35,863 bases of DNA from a virus, in UHGV virus genome UHGV-0129071. The stretch is one strand, 5' to 3'. This document shows, one piece after another, positions 1-35,863 of the stretch (its first letter is position 1; every line of letters starts with the position of its first letter). Made by a program: the position numbers and the translations under genes. The notes beneath the pieces are model-generated. The model was not told where the DNA came from and did no database searches. It saw only the letters and a program-made list of their open reading frames with translations.

Positions 1-59
1 TAGCGAGTTCAGATAAAAGAAATCCCCGCGAGTGCGAGGATTGTTATGTAATATTTGGT

Positions 60-341
60 TTAATCATCTATATGTTTTGTACAGAGAGGGCAAGTATCGT
101 TTCCACCGTACTCGTGATAATAATTTTGCACGGTATCAGTCATTTCTCGCACATTGCAGAATGGGGATTTGTCTTCATTAGACTTATAAACCTTCATGGA
201 ATATTTGTATGCCGACTCTATATCTATACCTTCATCTACATAAACACCTTCGTGATGTCTGCATGGAGACAAGACACCGGATCTGCACAACATTGATAAC
301 GCCCAATCTTTTTGCTCAGACTCTAACTCATTGATACTCAT
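60..341 (-). CDS. hypothetical small Cys-containing early protein (93 aa)
   Basis: ORF with strong SD (AAGGAG) 7 nt upstream of ATG; paired Cys residues suggest possible Zn-binding; no recognisable family. Confidence 0.4.
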   Translation of the reverse strand: MSINELESEQKDWALSMLCRSGVLSPCRHHEGVYVDEGIDIESAYKYSMKVYKSNEDKSPFCNVREMTDTVQNYYHEYGGNDTCPLCTKHIDD

Positions 342-543
342 TTATAAACTCCTTGCAATGTATGTCGTTTCAGCTAAACGGTATCAGCAATGTTTATGTA
401 AAGAAACAGTAAGATAATACCCAACCCGATGTTTGAGTACGGTCATCATCTGACACTACAGACTCTGGCATCGCTGTGAAGACGATGCGAAATTCAGCAT
501 TTTCACAAGCGTTATCTTTTACAAACCCGTATTCCTGCTCATA

Positions 544-1296
544 TCACTCTCCTTTGATGCGAATGCCAGCGTCAGACATCATATGCAGATACTCAACTGC
601 ATCCTGAACCCATTGACCGCCAATCCCGTAATAGCGATGCGTAATGATGTCGATAGTTACTAACGGATCTTGTTCGATTAACTTCCGCAGAAACTCTTCC
701 AGGTCACCAGTGCAGTGCTTGATGACAGGAGTTTTCCCAGGATGGCGAACAACAAGAAACTGATTTCCGACTTCACGGACTTCGTTGCTTTCCAGTTCTG
801 CAATGCGCTTCTCTGCGGCTTCCAGCTTCTCGCGCATATCGTCAACGTACTCGACCAGAGAACCGCCAGCAGGAATTTCGCACTCCTCGACCAGTTGGAA
901 GTAGATATCAGCTGCGGCCCGTGTGTTGCTATGCCTAGCGTCGCCCATCTCACCTTCACGAAGAGCATCGCGTTCGGCGGTAAGATTGGCTATTTTGCTG
1001 TCTTTGCCTTCCAGCTCAACGCGCAGCTTCCCTACCGTTAGCGCAATATCCTCGTTCTCCTGGTCACGGCGTTTTATGTATTGCTGGTTTCTTTCCAGCT
1101 CATCCAGTAGTGCCAGCACGGTTTCTGGTCCGGCCAGAAATTTGAAGGCGTTGAGCGCATCAATATCCACACCGTAATCTTTAAGTTCCTGTTCGCTTAT
1201 CAGATCATCATCAACTGGCAACATTAACAGGCGTTCCATTGCCGGAATTGCACGTTCTGCCGCCTCACGCAGTGCCTGATAGTTAATTTTGGTCAT
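544..1296 (-). CDS. Ea22/ead-like early-region protein (250 aa) with central coiled-coil
   Basis: Long ORF in early-left operon; coiled-coil heptad-like middle, conserved-looking C-terminal domain; family assignment from recollection only. Confidence 0.45.
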   Translation of the reverse strand: MTKINYQALREAAERAIPAMERLLMLPVDDDLISEQELKDYGVDIDALNAFKFLAGPETVLALLDELERNQQYIKRRDQENEDIALTVGKLRVELEGKDSKIANLTAERDALREGEMGDARHSNTRAAADIYFQLVEECEIPAGGSLVEYVDDMREKLEAAEKRIAELESNEVREVGNQFLVVRHPGKTPVIKHCTGDLEEFLRKLIEQDPLVTIDIITHRYYGIGGQWVQDAVEYLHMMSDAGIRIKGE

Positions 1297-3843: not shown

Positions 3844-4812
3844 TTAGTAGGTTATTTTTGTTGCGAATACTTCGCCTTTTACGATGGCTGTTATGATATT
3901 TTTAGCAACATCTTCTGATGCGCCAACCTTGATAAGGTCAGCAAGTATTTTGTTATTTACTTCTTTCTGGTGAGCTTTATCCTTTGCTCTACGCTCTTCT
4001 TCGTCCTTGATTCTTTTTTCTTCTGCTATTCTGGCTTGCTCTTTTGCTTCAGCCTCGCGCCTGATTCGTTCAGCCTCCTCCTGTGCTTTTCGGCGTTCTG
4101 CTTCAATTGCCGCCTGCTTTTCTCTTTCAGCTCGTTCTGCTGCCTCTTTTGCTTCGCGCTGTGCTCGTTGCTCGGCTTCAATGCGTTCACGCTCTGCACG
4201 TTCCGCTGCGGCCTTAGCTTCTGCTTCTCGCCTTGCTGCTGCTTCAATTTCGGCTTTTGCCTTTGCTTCGGCTTCTGCTCTGGCTTTCTCTTCAGCTTCT
4301 CTTTTTAAGCGTTCTTCATGCTCTCGCTTTTCCTGCTCCGCTTTGAGTCTTGCCTCTTCTCTTTGGCGGTCAAATTCGCGATCCATCAAAATCGCTATTT
4401 CATGGTCAGACTCAATTTGCTTTGCGAGAGCTTCAGCTGCTGCCTTAGCTTCTTCTTCGGCTTTAATCCGCGCCTGTTCTTCCTCATAATCAGTAAGAGG
4501 CTGGCGCGCCTTGGCTTTCAGTTCATCAAGGCGATCGCGCACTGTCTTGCGGTTAGCATCAATTAGCTTTGGAATTTCCTTCAGCTCAGCAACAAGGTCT
4601 TTGCCAAGACCATCGAGATATGTTTTCGTCTGCGCAACTTTATACGCCAGAGAAGCGATCTCCTTTCTGCCCTTTGCCGTTGTGATATCAGGCACAAAGG
4701 ACATAACTTCACGTTCAACCTTTTGAAGGATTTCTTCAATCTGGTCTGCAGACTGAAATACAGTCATTGCATTTGCTTTTTCAATAACAACTAAGTCTGT
4801 TACTTCACTCAT
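3844..4812 (-). CDS. coiled-coil protein with long E/A/K/R-rich low-complexity segment (DUF1351-like companion of Rad52-type recombinases)
   Basis: 322-aa ORF; about 150 residues of AEAKA/ERAERE repeats; located in recombination module. Confidence 0.55.
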   Translation of the reverse strand: MSEVTDLVVIEKANAMTVFQSADQIEEILQKVEREVMSFVPDITTAKGRKEIASLAYKVAQTKTYLDGLGKDLVAELKEIPKLIDANRKTVRDRLDELKAKARQPLTDYEEEQARIKAEEEAKAAAEALAKQIESDHEIAILMDREFDRQREEARLKAEQEKREHEERLKREAEEKARAEAEAKAKAEIEAAARREAEAKAAAERAERERIEAEQRAQREAKEAAERAEREKQAAIEAERRKAQEEAERIRREAEAKEQARIAEEKRIKDEEERRAKDKAHQKEVNNKILADLIKVGASEDVAKNIITAIVKGEVFATKITY

Positions 4813-11835: not shown

Positions 11836-12023
11836 GCATGAGTCGACGAAGTAGCTTTTTGGGGTTTGTAATATTCCTGTCCTGCACTGGTTACATCGTA
11901 ATCTGGTCAATTTCGAACATTGACCGTGGCGTGGCATATCTCATTGTAATGTTCTTTCCTTTGTTTCTTGGGTGGTACGCCGCAAGGTTGCTGGAAGAAT
12001 GGGGTTACAGGCATAAAAAATAA
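11832..12023 (+). CDS. small membrane protein (63 aa)
   Basis: Two predicted TM helices; ATGA-type overlap with upstream gene. Confidence 0.4.
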   Translation: MSMSRRSSFLGFVIFLSCTGYIVIWSISNIDRGVAYLIVMFFPLFLGWYAARLLEEWGYRHKK

Positions 12024-12034
12024 AGGAGTGTTCA

Positions 12035-12445
12035 GTGAAGCAAACAATATTCCTCCGAACTAAGCAACAACAGCAAGCCGCAATCAACGCCATCCTCGCA
12101 ACACCACTCGATAAAGACAAGCCAGTTACCATCCGCATTACTGACTACAAGCGCAACCTTGACCAGAACGCAAAATTTCACGCTATGGTCGCAGATATCG
12201 CCAGGCAAGTTCAGTGGCGCGATAAATGGTTAAAACCAGAACAATGGAAGGTTTTGTTGATAAGCGGTCATGCAGTGGCAACAAAGCAGGAAGCTGATGT
12301 TTTGCCCGGGCTTGAAGGCGAATACGTCAACATTCGCGAAAGCAGCGCGCAGATGAGTGTGAAGCGTATGGCAAGTCTGATCGAGTACACAACAGCATGG
12401 GCTATTGGTCAGGGTGTCAGATTTACCGACAGGAGGTACGAATGA
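12035..12445 (+). CDS. ninB: NinB (Orf-family recombination mediator)
   Basis: 136-aa ORF similar to recalled lambda NinB; first of NinB-NinE-NinF series. Confidence 0.8.
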
Positions 12446-12624
12446 GGCGACAGCGACGAAGTATCACCGACATCATCTGCGAAAACTGCAAATACCTTCC
12501 AACGAAACGCTCCAGAAATAAACGCAAGCCAATCCCAAAAGAATCTGACGTAAAAACCTTCAATTACACGGCTCACCTGTGGGATATCCGGTGGCTTAGA
12601 GAACGTGCGAGGAAAACAAGGTGA
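12442..12624 (+). CDS. ninE: NinE
   Basis: [60 protein letters not shown] matches recalled lambda NinE; AGGAGG SD; ATGA overlap with ninB. Confidence 0.75.
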
Positions 12625-12791
12625 TTGACCCAAATCGAAGTTACGAACAAGAAAGCGTCGAGCGGGCTTTAACGTGCGCTAACTGCGGTCAGAAGCTGCA
12701 TGTGCTGGAAGTTCACGTGTGTGAGCACTGCTGTGCAGAACTGATGAGCGATCCGAATAGCTCAATGTACGAGGAAGAAGACGATGAGTGA
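12621..12791 (+). CDS. ninF: NinF (GTG start)
   Basis: (M)[47 protein letters not shown]... matches recalled lambda NinF; not in ORF track because GTG start and under 60 aa. Confidence 0.7.
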
Positions 12792-13505
12792 GTTAATAAA
12801 TGGCAATGCCATCAAAATGACAAGCATTGAAATCGCTGAGTTGGTGGGTAAGCGTCATGACAATGTGAAACGTACCATCGAAACGCTGGCTAAAAATGGT
12901 GTTATCCGGCTTCCTCAAATTGAGGTTTCCGAAAGAATCAATAACTTAGGGTTCAATGTTCAGTACGAGCATTACGTCTTCGAGGGCGAACAAGGTAAGC
13001 GAGACAGTATTGTCGTTGTTGCCCAGTTGTCGCCAGAGTTCACCGCTCGTCTTGTTGACCGCTGGCGAGAGCTTGAAGAAGCTGCGGTTAATATCCCCAA
13101 AACGCTACCGGAAGCGTTGCGCCTTGCTGCTGACCTTGCTGAGCAGAAAATGCAGCTGGAAAACCAGCTCGCAATTGCCGCACCTAAAGTTGAGTTTGCC
13201 GATCGCGTTGGCGAGGCCAGTGGAATTTTGATTGGAAACTTTGCAAAGGTTGTTGGAATTGGTCCAAACAAACTGTTTGCGTGGATGCGCGATCACAAAA
13301 TCCTATTGCTTCAGGTTCCCGGCGAAATGTGCCAATGCAGGAATATATGGATCGCGGCTATTTCACAGTGAAAGAAACAGCGGTCAACACAAATCACGGA
13401 ATACAGATATCGTTCACCACAAAAATCACCGGGCGTGGTCAACAGTGGCTGACCAGAAAGCTGCTCGATAACGGAATGCTGAAAGTAACAGGGGAGGCTG
13501 CTTAA
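12784..13505 (+). pseudogene. Rha/Roi-like regulator with KilA-C (antirepressor C-terminal) domain, split across two reading frames
   Basis: Frame A (12784..13371) carries N-terminal domain and start of KilA-C (LFAWMRDHKIL); frame B (13281..13505) carries remainder (NVPMQEYMDRGYFTVKE...GRGQQWLTRKLL); frames join near 13305..13340. Confidence 0.5.
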
Positions 13506-13795
13506 TGGCTAAACTACGCAAAGAAGCGCGCGGCAGAGAATGCCAGGTACGTATTTACGGCGTATGCAATGGTAATCCTGAAACTACAGTTCTGGCACAT
13601 TACCGGATGGCTGGAATTTGCGGAACGGGAATAAAGCCTGACGACCTGATCGGCGCATGGGCTTGTAGCGCGTGTCACGATGAAATCGACCGACGCACCC
13701 ATAATCTCGACAACAAAGACGCCAGACTTTACCACCTCGAAGGCGTGATCAGGACGCAGGCGATACTACTGAAGGAGGGGAAGATTAAGCCATGA
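13505..13795 (+). CDS. DUF1364-like Cys-rich nin-region protein (possible HNH-like)
   Basis: 96-aa ORF with CxxxC and CxxC pairs (CQVRIYGVC; CSACHDEID); recalled as common nin-region family. Confidence 0.5.
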   Translation: MAKLRKEARGRECQVRIYGVCNGNPETTVLAHYRMAGICGTGIKPDDLIGAWACSACHDEIDRRTHNLDNKDARLYHLEGVIRTQAILLKEGKIKP

Positions 13796-14154
13796 ACGAA
13801 TATCAGTTTGTGCTTCCATACCCGCCGTCGGTGAATACCTACTGGCGAAGACGGGGAAGCCAATACTACATCAGCGATAAAGGCCAGAAATACCGAAAAG
13901 ACGTTCAGCAAATCATCCGCAAACTTAAGTTAGACATTTTCACCAAATCACGACTCCGTATCAAAGTAATCGCAGACGTTCCAGACTCCCGCCGCCGCGA
14001 CCTCGACAACATCCTGAAAGGTTTACTCGACTCCCTTATCCACGCCGGATTTGCGGAAGACGACGAGCAATTCGATGACATTCGCGTAATTCGTGGCGTG
14101 AAAGTACCAGGCGGAAGGCTTGGAATAAAAATCACCGAGCTGGAGAACGTATGA
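13792..14154 (+). CDS. rusA: RusA-family Holliday junction resolvase
   Basis: 120-aa ORF with conserved RusA features (PPSVNTYWRRRG; DLDNILKGLLDSL acidic catalytic region). Confidence 0.8.
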   Translation: MNEYQFVLPYPPSVNTYWRRRGSQYYISDKGQKYRKDVQQIIRKLKLDIFTKSRLRIKVIADVPDSRRRDLDNILKGLLDSLIHAGFAEDDEQFDDIRVIRGVKVPGGRLGIKITELENV

Positions 14155-14339
14155 ACGCCACAATTCAAACGATACCAGAGCTTCTTATCCAGACACGAGG
14201 CAATCAGACCGAAGTGGCGAGGATGCTTTCCTGCGCAAGAGGAACAGTGCTCAAGTACAACCGAGACAGCAAAGGTGAGCGTCACGTAATAGTTAACGGC
14301 GTCCTGATGGTCAAACAGGGCAAGAGGGGAAGACGATGA
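14151..14339 (+). CDS. ninH: NinH (Fis-like HTH protein)
   Basis: YGNQTEVARMLSCARGTVLKY matches HTH of recalled lambda NinH; position immediately before Q. Confidence 0.7.
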   Translation: MNATIQTIPELLIQTRGNQTEVARMLSCARGTVLKYNRDSKGERHVIVNGVLMVKQGKRGRR

Positions 14340-14959
14340 GACTCGAAAGCGTAGCTAAATTTCACTCGCCAAAAAGCCCGATGATGAGCGACTCACCACG
14401 GGCTACGGCTTCTGACTCTCTTTCCGGTACTGATGTGATGGCTGCTATGGGGATGGCGCAATCACAAGCCGGATTCGGAATGGCTGCATTCTGCGGTAAG
14501 CATGAACTCAGCCAGAACGACAAACAAAAGGCTATCAACTATCTGATGCAATTTGCACACAAGGTATCGGGGAAATACCGTGGTGTGGCAAAGCTTGAAG
14601 GAAATACTAAGGCAAAGGTACTGCAAGTGCTCGCAACATTCGCTTATGCGGATTATTGCCGTAGTGCCGCGACGCCGGGCGCAAGATGCAGAGATTGCCA
14701 TGGTACAGGCCGTGCGGTTGATATAGCCAAAACAGAGCAGTGGGGGAGAGTTGTTGAGAAAGAGTGCGGAAGATGCAAAGGTGTCGGCTATTCAAGAATG
14801 CCAGCAAGCGCCGCATATCGCGCTGTAACGATGCTAATCCCAAACCTCACCCAACCCACCTGGTCACGCACTGTTAAGCCGCTGTATGACGCTCTGGTGG
14901 TGCAATGCCACAAAGAAGAGTCAATCGCAGACAACATTTTGAACGCGGTCACACGTTAG
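14336..14959 (+). CDS. Q: late antiterminator Q (lambda-type)
   Basis: 207-aa ORF essentially identical to recalled lambda Q; followed by lambda-like PR' promoter. Confidence 0.9.
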   Translation: MRLESVAKFHSPKSPMMSDSPRATASDSLSGTDVMAAMGMAQSQAGFGMAAFCGKHELSQNDKQKAINYLMQFAHKVSGKYRGVAKLEGNTKAKVLQVLATFAYADYCRSAATPGARCRDCHGTGRAVDIAKTEQWGRVVEKECGRCKGVGYSRMPASAAYRAVTMLIPNLTQPTWSRTVKPLYDALVVQCHKEESIADNILNAVTR

Positions 14960-15001
14960 CAGCATGATTGCCACGGATGGCAACATATTAACGGCATGAT
15001 A

Positions 15002-15045
15002 TTGACTTATTGAATAAAATTGGGTAAATTTGACTCAACGATGGA
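15002..15045 (+). promoter_or_regulatory. late promoter PR' with qut region
   Basis: TTGACTTATTGAATAAAATTGGGTAAATTTGACTCAACGATGG matches recalled lambda PR'/qut (-35 TTGACT 15002..15007; -10 TAAATT 15025..15030). Confidence 0.65.
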
Positions 15046-15065
15046 TAAATGCACTCGTTAAATAA

Positions 15066-15100
15066 AGCCCTGAGTTAATAGCTCGGGGCTTTTTGCGTTT
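15066..15100 (+). terminator. tR'-like rho-independent terminator about 30 nt downstream of PR' start
   Basis: AGCCCTGAG-TTAATAG-CTCGGGGCT hairpin (one G-U pair) followed by TTTTTGCGTTTT. Confidence 0.5.
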
Positions 15101-15392
15101 TAAGCACGGCCTTTCTGAAAGCACATCAAACCAAATACCAGACAGACAAAAATAATCACCTTATCCGCTGTGGCTACGGTGCGGTGTGCTTTGCATAAAA
15201 GAAAACCAGCTCAATGGCTGGCTTCGTGAAAGCGGGTGGCAAGAGGTTGCGCTAACAACCTCCTGCCGTTTTGCCCGTGCATATCGGTCACGAACAAATC
15301 TGATTACTAAACACAGTAGCCTGGATTTGTTCTATCAGTAATCGACCTTATTCCTAATTAAATAGAGCAAATCCCCTTATTGGGGGTAAGAC

Positions 15393-15716
15393 ATGAAGAT
15401 GCCAGAAAAACATGACCTGTTAGCCGCCATTCTCGCGGCAAAGGAACAAGGCATCGGGGCAATCCTTGCGTTTGCAATGGCGTACCTTCGCGGCAGATAT
15501 AATGGCGGTGCGTTTACAAAAACAGTAATCGACGCAACGATGTGCGCCATTATCGCCTGGTTCATTCGTGACCTTCTCGACTTCGCAGGACTAAGTAGCA
15601 ATCTCGCTTATATAACGAGCGTGTTCATCGGCTACATCGGTACTGACTCGATTGGTTCGCTTATCAAACGCTTCGCTGCTAAAAAAGCCGGAGTAGAAGA
15701 TGGTGGAAATCAATAA
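15393..15716 (+). CDS. S: holin S (class I, dual-start MKM)
   Basis: 107-aa ORF near-identical to recalled lambda S107/S105; Met1-Lys2-Met3 dual start. Confidence 0.9.
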
Positions 15717-16956: not shown

Positions 16957-17499
16957 ATGAACTACCCAACCGTTGTTAACGATATAGATTTCAGAGACCT
17001 AATTTTTGTAGCAAACAACGATCCGGTTACAGATTCTTTTATGGTGGCAAAAGCATTTGGAAAGCTGCCGAAGAACGTGGTTCGTGACATTGAACGAACC
17101 ATAGAAGCTTGCCCTCCTGAGTTTGATACAAAGCTCAACTTTGAGCTTTGCTATAAAAACAATGAGTTACAGAATGGTAAACCGCAAAAATTCTACCGTC
17201 TCCGCAAGGATGGGTTGATGCTTTTGGTTATGTCCTACACCAAAAAAGAAGCAATGCGTATCAAAATTGCTTACATCAACGCATTCAACTGGATGTACGC
17301 CATGCTTCAGGTTGGTCATCGTCAATTTGAAGAAGAGAGAAATGCCGTAATGCTGGAGTACATGAAAGAGAAGGATGTTGCCAGCATGTCAGGCCGCCTG
17401 CTTAATCGCTGGGGAAAAATTAAGAAGCCTCAGCTACTGGCGAGAATTGAACGCCTTGAACAGCACGGGCAAACCGTAATCCCCGGACTCACCAATTAA
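16957..17499 (+). CDS. rha: Rha-family phage regulatory protein
   Basis: 180-aa ORF; N-terminal region (DSFMVAKAFGKLPKNVVRDIE) typical of Rha family; same location (lysis to terminase) as P22 rha. Confidence 0.7.
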   Translation: MNYPTVVNDIDFRDLIFVANNDPVTDSFMVAKAFGKLPKNVVRDIERTIEACPPEFDTKLNFELCYKNNELQNGKPQKFYRLRKDGLMLLVMSYTKKEAMRIKIAYINAFNWMYAMLQVGHRQFEEERNAVMLEYMKEKDVASMSGRLLNRWGKIKKPQLLARIERLEQHGQTVIPGLTN

Positions 17500-33057: not shown

Positions 33058-35196
33058 ATGACAGACATTACAGCCAATGTTGTAGTGAGTATGCCTTCGC
33101 AACTCTTCACTATGGCGCGTTCTTTTAAAGCCGTAGCCAATGGCAAAATTTATATCGGTAAAATTGACACTGATCCTGTAAATACAGAAAACCAGATTCA
33201 GGTCTATGTGGAGAATGAAGACGGTTCTCACGTTCCTGTTTCGCAACCAATAATCATTAACGCTGCTGGATATCCGGTATATAACGGACAGATTGCCAAA
33301 TTCGTTACCGTGCAAGGCCATTCTATGGCTGTTTATGATGCGTATGGTGCGCAGCAGTTCTATTTTCCTAATGTGCTGAAGTATGACCCTGATCAACTAC
33401 GGCAGCAATTAGAAGACCCGGATGGAGCTAAAAAATATCCTGAATTGCAGATATCTCGGTGGAGGGACGATTGTGATGTAAGAGGGTGGGGGGCAAAAGG
33501 CGATGGTATAACAGATGATACATCTGCATTGATCTTGGCTGCAGAATATGCACGAGAATCATCCAAAACATTACGAGCGGAAGGTAATTTTATTATTACG
33601 GAGACATTAAATCTTCGTAATGTCAGCCTCGAAATGACCAATGCTGTTTTTACCATATCCCACTCAGGAATAGGGGTATTGCTTGGCGGGAATGCATCAA
33701 ACCCTAACAACCCAAGACAAAACTTCGGAACGATTATCAGAAATTCTGGTATTTCATCTGAAACGACACCGGATATTCGTATTATCGGGGCAAAAGGGCA
33801 GCATATAAACATTGAGCGTTGCGACTACTTACAGTTATATGCAAATTATAATGCTTCGGTGGCATCGACGGATTATTCAATAGCATACTCAACCTTTAAC
33901 CTGAAAAAGGTCGATACAATTCATTTTCTTGGAGTTGAGAACGGATGGATAAATGAAAACTATTTTTATCTGAATCGTACGAATAATATCATTTTCGCTG
34001 ATAATCCATATCATCATAACCACAATAAGTTTTATGGTGGAACTATGGAGGGGGCAGGTAAAATTGATATTCAAAGAGGTGATAACAATTACTTCTACGG
34101 GTTTCGTTTTGAACGAGATCCATCATCCCAAACTAACCAACAGTTGATAATTAACTTTGGTGAATATACGTGGAATAACTCAATTGAAGCTACATGGTTA
34201 AGTTCTCCTTACTATACAAATGAGCCATACAATCCATCACCTTACACTTATGTCGAGGTAACTGATAATGGCAAGGGGAATGCAGTATTTCATATTCAGG
34301 AAAATATATCCGATGAAGTAACATTGTTTTCTTTAAATGCTAACACCCCATTTATATCCAGTGCTAACAATGGAGAAGTTGGTGTATTAGCATTTCAAAC
34401 AGATGTAGATGGTTTATATAATATCCGTCACCTGGTTTCTTCTAAGTTTGCTTTTATGCGGAATTTTGGGTTGTTATGGGAATCTGGAGATGTACCAGTA
34501 AGAAATGGTGATATGTTTACATTCTCAGCAGATACGGCATCGTTTCGCATTTACCTGTATGCATTAGATGGAGATGGGAATGTCATAACTTCACAAACAG
34601 AAGCAATAACCTCTTCTATGCAATGGGATTCATCTAACCATAGATATGCTACTGTTGCTAACATTTCTTCCATTAAGATCAGGATTAATAATGAAGGGGT
34701 TCCAGTTAGTGCAATTCGTTTAGCTGTGTATTCTGGTGGTAATGTAGCGAATACTGCATTTTCATGGCTATGCTTAACTGGTAGATATTACAAAAATAGC
34801 ACATCCTTGCCAAGGAAAAGCAAAGATAACTTCACCTTAAAACAAGGAAAAGCAATTACTTATTATAGTGATACTGATATTAGTATGGCTAACATTGGTT
34901 CAGGAATTACCTGTTATAAAACCGATTTATCTGAACTCAAAATTAATCTTGTAAGGGGCAGGTATGTAGTGAAATCAATTTCAGGCAGTGAAATATATGT
35001 ATACCAAGGAACAGTCACTTATTACCCTCCATTCAGTGATATCAAATTGGTATATACGGATGGGGTTGAAAATAAATTATTAGATGTGCAAAACATCTCT
35101 TCAGAAAAGATTACTCTTGCAGATACAGTACCATCAGCTATATCTGCAGGTGATTTTGTAGATATTATTGTTACAAAGACGAAATCTATTTTATGA
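33058..35196 (+). CDS. tailspike protein (P22 gp9-type N-terminal head-binding domain, divergent receptor-binding domain)
   Basis: 712 aa; N-terminal about 115 aa ([11 protein letters not shown]...[19 protein letters not shown]...VLKYDPDQ) matches recalled P22/HK620/Sf6 tailspike head-binding domain; remainder differs from P22. Confidence 0.85.
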
Positions 35197-35230
35197 AGTG
35201 TTTATTTATCCTTATGTTAAAGGAGCGATA

Positions 35231-35518
35231 ATGGATATAACACCTTTCCTTCATGCGTTTTGTGCTGTGGCTGCGCAGGTACTGATTGGCCTTTTTACCG
35301 GAAACTGGGCTTACGGGGCGATAGCCGGTTGTACGTTCTTCATTGCGCGTGAACACACCCAGGCAGAATATCGCTGGATTGAAATGTTCGGGCATGGCAA
35401 GCGTATGAATATGCCGTGGTGGGGCGGTTTTGATCCGCGCGTATGGGATGTGGGAAGTTTGTTGGATTTTTCTTTCCCAATTATCGGATGCTTATTGGTA
35501 TGGATTCTTGCATCGTAG
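35231..35518 (+). CDS. hypothetical small membrane protein (95 aa)
   Basis: ATG 35231 with AAGGAG SD; two or three hydrophobic segments; directly after tailspike. Confidence 0.4.
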   Translation: MDITPFLHAFCAVAAQVLIGLFTGNWAYGAIAGCTFFIAREHTQAEYRWIEMFGHGKRMNMPWWGGFDPRVWDVGSLLDFSFPIIGCLLVWILAS

Positions 35519-35626
35519 CGAACACATAATTACCAATGAGACAAAACTGAGACACACAAAGCTTTGCACTGGATTACAAGGCTTTGTGTCATTCTCTGGA
35601 GTGCGATATGTTCTGATGACAAAAAA

Positions 35627-35668
35627 TTAGCGCAAGAAGACAAAAAATCACCTTGCGCTAATGCTCTG
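35627..35668 (-). terminator. hairpin with T-run (minus-strand orientation), possible terminator of a leftward transcript entering from beyond window
   Basis: Perfect 10-bp inverted repeat TTAGCGCAAG-N15-CTTGCGCTAA; on minus strand followed by TTTTTT. Confidence 0.3.
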
Positions 35669-35863
35669 TCTCAGGTCACTAATACTATCTAAGTAGTTGA
35701 TTCATAGTGACTGGATATGTTGTGTTTTGTCGCGTTTTGCAGTCTATTATTTAATCATTAAGTAATCTAATGCTATGATTTTTAAATTATTTATGTGGTT
35801 TTGTCATCCTTTAGGTGAAAAAGGTTGAGTCGCAAAGCGGAATGCATCTAGCATAAAGCCTTA

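Follow-up and report, generated by a model that had tools for sequence, protein, structure and literature searches.

A one-base deletion in the roi gene of a P22-like phage of Escherichia coli

The roi locus in the nin region

We analyzed a stretch of 35,863 nucleotides from the virus genome UHGV-0129071 (hereafter, the window). The window as a whole is a segment of a P22-like phage genome, and its nearest relatives are CUS-3, vB_EcoP-720R6, and phiv205-1. In ENA, it corresponds to the metagenome contig ERZ1310634 NODE_544_length_35863. Its two ends (1..544 and 35518..35863) lie within the early-left operon and shortly past the tailspike gene (33058..35196), respectively.

Based on sequence comparisons, we identify the gene at 12784..13505 as roi, in the nin region of a P22-like (Lederbergvirus-type) E. 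coli phage. A 723-nt gene at the equivalent position in HK620 and CUS-3 is annotated as roi, “DNA-binding protein Roi”; the gene also goes by the names “anti-repressor Ant” (in PHROGs) and “phage antirepressor KilAC domain-containing protein” (in RefSeq). The gene order in the window, ninB-ninE-ninF-roi-hkbD-rusA-ninH-Q, places it in the nin region. When the 722-nt region was used as a megablast query, 220 phage records and 1,113 E. coli records were matched. The top matches, which include HK633, HK620, CUS-3, and about 970 E. coli genomes, are 98–99% identical over 722 nt, and nearly all of these matches are 723 nt long. In the window, the gene is spread over two reading frames (Table 1).

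Table 1. Positions of the two parts of roi, the lesion between them, and the adjacent genes.
Feature	Position	Strand	Basis or remark
ninF, upstream neighbor	12621..12791	+	Stop overlaps roi start (ATGAGTGA)
roi 5' ORF, 195 aa	12784..13371	+	ORF list, tblastn, Pfam
Lesion, 1-nt T deletion	13304..13304	+	Alignment with HK620, E. coli M9, PSJ-36, and LR-25
roi 3' fragment, Roi residues 175–240 and native TAA	13305..13505	+	-1 frame
hkbD/YbcO (DUF1364), downstream neighbor	13505..13795	+	ATG and the native roi TAA have an A in common

The GGAGG at 13493..13497, which is 7 nt before the ATG of hkbD, is hkbD's own. Because of this, we expect that hkbD would still be translated despite the premature stop in roi, and we expect little polarity.

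A perfect match to the IHF consensus (AATCAATAACTTA) lies at 12936..12948 (+), in the 5' third of roi, and is untouched by the deletion. The window contains three matches to this consensus as compared to 2.4 expected by chance, so at the scale of the window this site is indistinguishable from chance and is a lead only. In HK022, Roi is said to bind inside its own gene, next to an IHF site (a result attributed to Clerget and Boccard in 1996), and point mutants in roi reportedly escape the inhibition of lytic growth in IHF mutants.

A second pRha gene is present at 16957..17499 (+), in the interval between the lysis genes and the small terminase gene. This gene is intact and resembles P22 Rha (pRha with ORF11CD3), so the phage keeps another pRha regulator.

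The missing base and the truncated product

A preliminary description of this DNA proposed that a regulator with a Rha-type N terminus is split between two frames within its C-terminal KilA-C domain. The open reading frames, tblastn, and Pfam all bear this out. When the 240-aa Roi protein of CUS-3 was compared to the window with tblastn, residues 1–175 aligned in frame 1 (12784–13308, 97.1% identity), residues 175–240 aligned in frame 3 (13305–13502, 100% identity), and the two pieces were collinear. The 195-aa ORF contains 174 codons of native Roi (12784..13305), then 21 out-of-frame codons (LLQVPGEMCQCRNIWIAAISQ), and it ends with a premature TGA at 13369..13371. The second ORF (13281..13505, on the same strand) is in a different frame.

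The domain assignments were right as well. The 195-aa product matches Phage_pRha (PF09669) at residues 12–99 (E = 4.4e-09, above the gathering score) and covers positions 1–51 of the 108 positions of the ANT/KilAC profile (E = 1.2e-12); the 66-aa C-terminal fragment, in the -1 frame, corresponds to ANT positions 54–106 (E = 2.7e-14). This resemblance is far beyond chance.

Alignment to intact homologs, which the preliminary description had recommended, identified a single gap: where the homologs have ATCCTTATT, the window has ATCC-TATT. In other words, CCTTATT has become CCTATT, and more than 1,300 copies from E. coli and phages read CCTTATT. The junction between the frames had been estimated at 13305..13340. 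It does lie at the edge of that range (13304/13305), but the missing T itself, at 13304, is one base 5' of it.

If the T is restored, the gene encodes a 240-aa protein that spans ANT/KilAC positions 1–106 in one stretch (E = 7.7e-33). This protein matches, residue for residue, a KilAC-domain antirepressor from E. coli prophages (P0016) that is seen on 62 contigs and in 159 index blocks. At nucleotide 708, a synonymous base is all that separates the repaired gene from three intact ones (L018, L020, and L024). Of three features of the Roi family (a pRha domain, the position in the nin region, and a complete in-frame ANT/KilAC domain), only the last is absent from the window copy. Because the domain is split between frames and is whole once the T is restored, we place the gene, from its sequence, in the known Roi (pRha-KilAC) family, as a member that has been disrupted. 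We reject the idea that the homologs are naturally two genes with this same boundary, as almost all of the 120 homologs listed are single ORFs of about 240 amino acids.

Some longer homologs are also present among the database proteins (P0031 and P0032, with 304 amino acids, and P0035 and P0036, with 294 amino acids). In one type, Roi is extended by 64 residues at its N terminus, and the other is a fusion of NinB (PF05772) to KilAC that covers Roi residues 19–240. Their sequences suggest deletions or fusions in other nin regions.

To describe what the shift removes, we used an AlphaFold2 model of intact Roi (58-sequence alignment, mean pLDDT of 80.4). The model has an N-terminal helix/strand module (residues 11–67), helices at 68–101, a long helix (108–144), and the KilAC region, which comprises helices at 150–157, 161–170, and 186–190, a beta-hairpin at 194–215, and a helix at 217–229. 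The shift after residue 174 removes the helix at 186–190, the beta-hairpin, and the last helix. Some of the domain's most conserved residues are in the lost part, namely Q186, G192, T216, and the invariant G219. Given this model, the truncated KilAC domain probably cannot fold and the pRha module would survive. We infer a loss of function from the truncation of the domain; with pRha intact, DNA binding could be retained.

The preliminary description also raised the possibility that an inactive regulator bears on whether the element is a decaying prophage. We compared 56 coding sequences from CUS-3 to the window with tblastn, and 43 of them map. Roi is the only one of these that is split between frames. 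The genes for terminase, portal, scaffold, coat, head completion, ejection, and lysis are all full length in the window, and the nin region is dispensable in lambda. General decay of the element is thus rejected (one split protein among 43, with intact morphogenesis genes), and, as judged from the sequence, the roi lesion is not a sign of decay. The integrase gene and the attachment site are absent from the contig, which ends before int/att.

Among the coding sequences that map, two from CUS-3 (35058..35408 and 35383..36027) correspond to one ORF of 322 amino acids in the window (3844..4812, minus strand). Both map to a single frame with 98–99% identity, so there may be an indel, or a split annotation, at this pair in CUS-3.

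Recurrence and rarity of the allele

We looked up the exact 195-aa product, including the aberrant tail, and found it on 12 contigs from about 10 samples. The 10 of these 12 contigs that are listed come from ENA, JGI, NCBI (GCA_958310575.1 and GCA_958334885.1), and Logan assemblies. Two of the carriers (L007 and L009) are on contigs of 216 kb and 90 kb, which suggests that they are lysogens.

The carriers differ in their cI/cro, O/P, and recombination modules, and their similarity to the window (by blastn) is mosaic. They represent at least five different phage immunity/replication backgrounds. Base-by-base comparisons to the window showed that 12735..14275 is identical in every locus compared, and that 12735..14724 is identical in all of the compared carriers except for one (L014). 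Mismatches cluster outside of this block, to its left in ninB/ninF and to its right in the 3' half of Q, and within roi there was zero variation among the carriers compared. Because the mosaic carriers share an identical block of 1.5–2 kb, these comparisons point to a deletion that arose once, on one nin-module haplotype, and later recombined into several backgrounds.

The allele is not common. With a 61-nt query centered on the lesion, our threshold of at least 99% identity was reached nowhere in 857 E. coli records (1,112 places) and 211 phage records, and the top match was at 98.4% (61/62, with a gap). The deletion allele was therefore not found among 5,426 complete E. coli genomes or in the phage collection. 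An exact 25-mer for the deletion allele (GATCACAAAATCCTATTGCTTCAGG) had zero matches in the GTDB species representatives and zero matches in JGI metagenome contigs. In IMG/VR, the 25-mer was present on one contig, as compared to at least 120 contigs with the intact 26-mer. Since two JGI contigs found by the look-up of the product were missed by the JGI scan, none of these scans is exhaustive. From these searches, we conclude that the allele is genuine but rare.

One metagenome in IMG/VR (3300045988) has at least 10 different contigs with intact roi as well as one contig with the deletion (loci L005, L037, L044, L051, L052, L057, L061, L071, L072, L094, and L099), so both alleles coexist in one data set. 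Over 14 kb, the contig with the deletion matches the window at 99.993% identity.

Explanations for the split gene and related systems

We consider it very probable that the missing T marks a loss-of-function or truncation allele of a dispensable roi, which is tolerated and is hitch-hiking on an exchanged nin module. A gene inactivated by a frameshift was among the options in the preliminary description, and it is the one that our analysis supports. In this scenario, one T would have been lost once, at 13304, on a roi haplotype that is one synonymous base away from its nearest intact relatives. Translation would shift after codon 174, and the resulting protein of 195 amino acids would retain the N-terminal winged-helix DNA-binding module (pRha) along with the long central helix. 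With the second half of KilAC lost, the allele would most likely be null or, at best, a hypomorph that only binds DNA. The phage would presumably remain viable because roi has an accessory role and lies in the nin region, and lambda still forms plaques when this entire region is deleted (PMC10695390). Homologous recombination of the nin module would then have carried the deletion into at least five immunity and replication backgrounds. It is plausible that losing roi is neutral in some hosts, or even brings a mild benefit.

That the allele recurs, in at least five mosaic phage backgrounds and in about 10 samples, might instead reflect selection for a functional “domain-shedding” variant, that is, a pRha-only Roi, perhaps accompanied by a separate C-terminal peptide. 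A benefit of this kind would account for the recombination of a single haplotype into at least five different P22-like or lambdoid backgrounds. However, the shared identical block also fits with recent hitch-hiking on a commonly exchanged module, and intact alleles of the same haplotype are likewise found in varied backgrounds. The proposed benefit would be a change in the lysis-lysogeny decision or in IHF dependence, such as relief of inhibition of the lytic cycle by Roi in IHF-poor hosts. This would be consistent with the intact pRha domain and with the inhibition of lytic growth by HK022 Roi in IHF mutants, as stated in the title of Clerget & Boccard 1996 and relayed by citing papers. The rarity of the allele (in 0 of 5,426 complete E. 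coli genomes and on one IMG/VR contig versus at least 120 with the intact gene) argues against a benefit.

The putative C-terminal peptide would have 52–56 amino acids and would start at the ATG at 13335 or at 13347. Gene callers do report downstream ORFs of 56 and 52 amino acids with matches to ANT in two carriers (L008 and L015), and there is an AGGA 4 nt upstream of the ATG at 13347, but no convincing Shine-Dalgarno sequence precedes the ATG at 13335, and half of a domain is unlikely to fold. Short stand-alone families in PHROGs cover Roi residues 164–229 and 154–227, but these may themselves be fragments of split genes. Overall, we view a selected variant as unlikely.

Two other readings from the preliminary description fare worse. 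The first is an error in the sequencing or assembly of the contig, so that the actual phage would have TT and an intact roi. The coverage of the contig is only about 7x, and the reference genomes all read TT. But the same frameshifted product appears in SPAdes-type, MEGAHIT-type, JGI, NCBI, and Logan assemblies, and at least seven of the sequences are distinct. Also, the site is a TT dinucleotide rather than a homopolymer run, and over 1,300 other assemblies that cover this local sequence have TT there. Random sequencing errors cannot produce a shared block within mosaic backgrounds. Given the exact-product look-up and the comparisons of the loci, we reject an assembly artifact; an error is effectively excluded as the explanation.

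The second is programmed -1 ribosomal frameshifting, or transcriptional slippage, that would restore full-length Roi. The direction is the one that would be needed, and the frames overlap by 178 nt (13194..13371), but the X XXY YYZ heptamer is absent from this overlap; there are only partial heptamers, 38–80 nt upstream of the lesion, and these would not restore the conserved sequence. For slippage, the neighborhood lacks any run of at least five identical bases (the longest near the site is A4, and runs of five are found only at 12892 and 13421). Nor is there a downstream structure: the RNA from 13290..13400 folds less well than shuffled sequences (minimum free energy of -19.2 versus a mean of -22.6 kcal/mol, z = +1.0), and Rfam has no match within 12000..15500. 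Finally, we found 7,224 homologs among 5.8 billion proteins, and almost all of the 120 that are listed are single ORFs of about 240 amino acids; the two-frame layout is confined to one haplotype. Based on the heptamer, homopolymer, RNA fold, Rfam, and homolog results, we reject recoding as exceedingly improbable.

Beyond annotation, the finding has little importance. Rather than two genes, the annotation should show a single roi with a frameshift, either as a pseudogene or as a truncated allele, and the lesion is no basis for calling the element defective. There is modest population-genetic interest in a single null allele that can be traced, as an identical block of 1.5–2 kb, through several mosaic phage genomes. 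The block gives a natural marker for nin modules that were recently exchanged among the P22-like phages of E. coli.

Among characterized phages, the closest counterparts are the Roi proteins of HK620, CUS-3, and HK633 (and also HK022 Roi), which are the same gene, with 97–99% identity in both DNA and protein. In HK620, CUS-3, and HK633, roi occupies the same slot between ninF and hkbD/ninG, upstream of rusA-ninH-Q, and the architecture of pRha followed by ANT/KilAC matches that of the window copy once the T is restored. Relative to these genes, the window copy lacks one T, and its product has residues 1–174 and an aberrant tail of 21 residues. The Rha-type protein of P22 (pRha with ORF11CD3) shares the N-terminal pRha domain with Roi, but its C-terminal domain is not the same, and its gene is found elsewhere in the genome, between the lysis genes and terminase.

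A more distant comparison is to AriS from Listeria phages (AntA/AntB with ANT/KilAC), which, like Roi, is a phage regulator with two domains, the C-terminal one being KilAC. pRha is listed as an alternative N-terminal domain in the AriS family (PMC9043618). Deleting KilAC alone, or either domain, from AriS gives a null phenotype for virion yield (PMC9043618). By analogy only, this supports reading the window allele as a loss of function. AriS is a distant relative from phages of Firmicutes and has another N-terminal domain, and inhibition of the SOS response by KilAC is a feature of AriS that we do not carry over to Roi.

Other disrupted copies of roi are known. In prophages of E. coli PSJ-36 (L003) and LR-25 (L004), roi is also disrupted by a 1-nt deletion and the nin regions are otherwise normal. 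These two copies have an independent deletion of a G at nucleotide 288 of roi (GAGAGCTT to GAGACTT), which is closer to pRha and is on a different haplotype, and RefSeq annotates them as “frameshifted” pseudogenes. We also noticed another 722-nt copy of roi in E. coli B-766 (H128), and in E. coli IR53017 (H160), roi is in two pieces that span 1,225 nt. In the Stx2a-converting phages PST1-3 and PST1-6, roi is disrupted by insertions of IS629 (PMC4587872). As in the window, these are natural inactivations of roi in lambdoid prophages, but they are due to an insertion sequence instead of a point frameshift, and they are in Stx phage backgrounds. Since frameshifted copies of roi are already annotated in RefSeq, the deletion of the T is nothing out of the ordinary: a null or truncation allele in a gene that is already known. 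It is further evidence that roi is lost repeatedly in nature, along with the deleted G in PSJ-36 and LR-25 and the IS629 insertions in the Stx2a phages.
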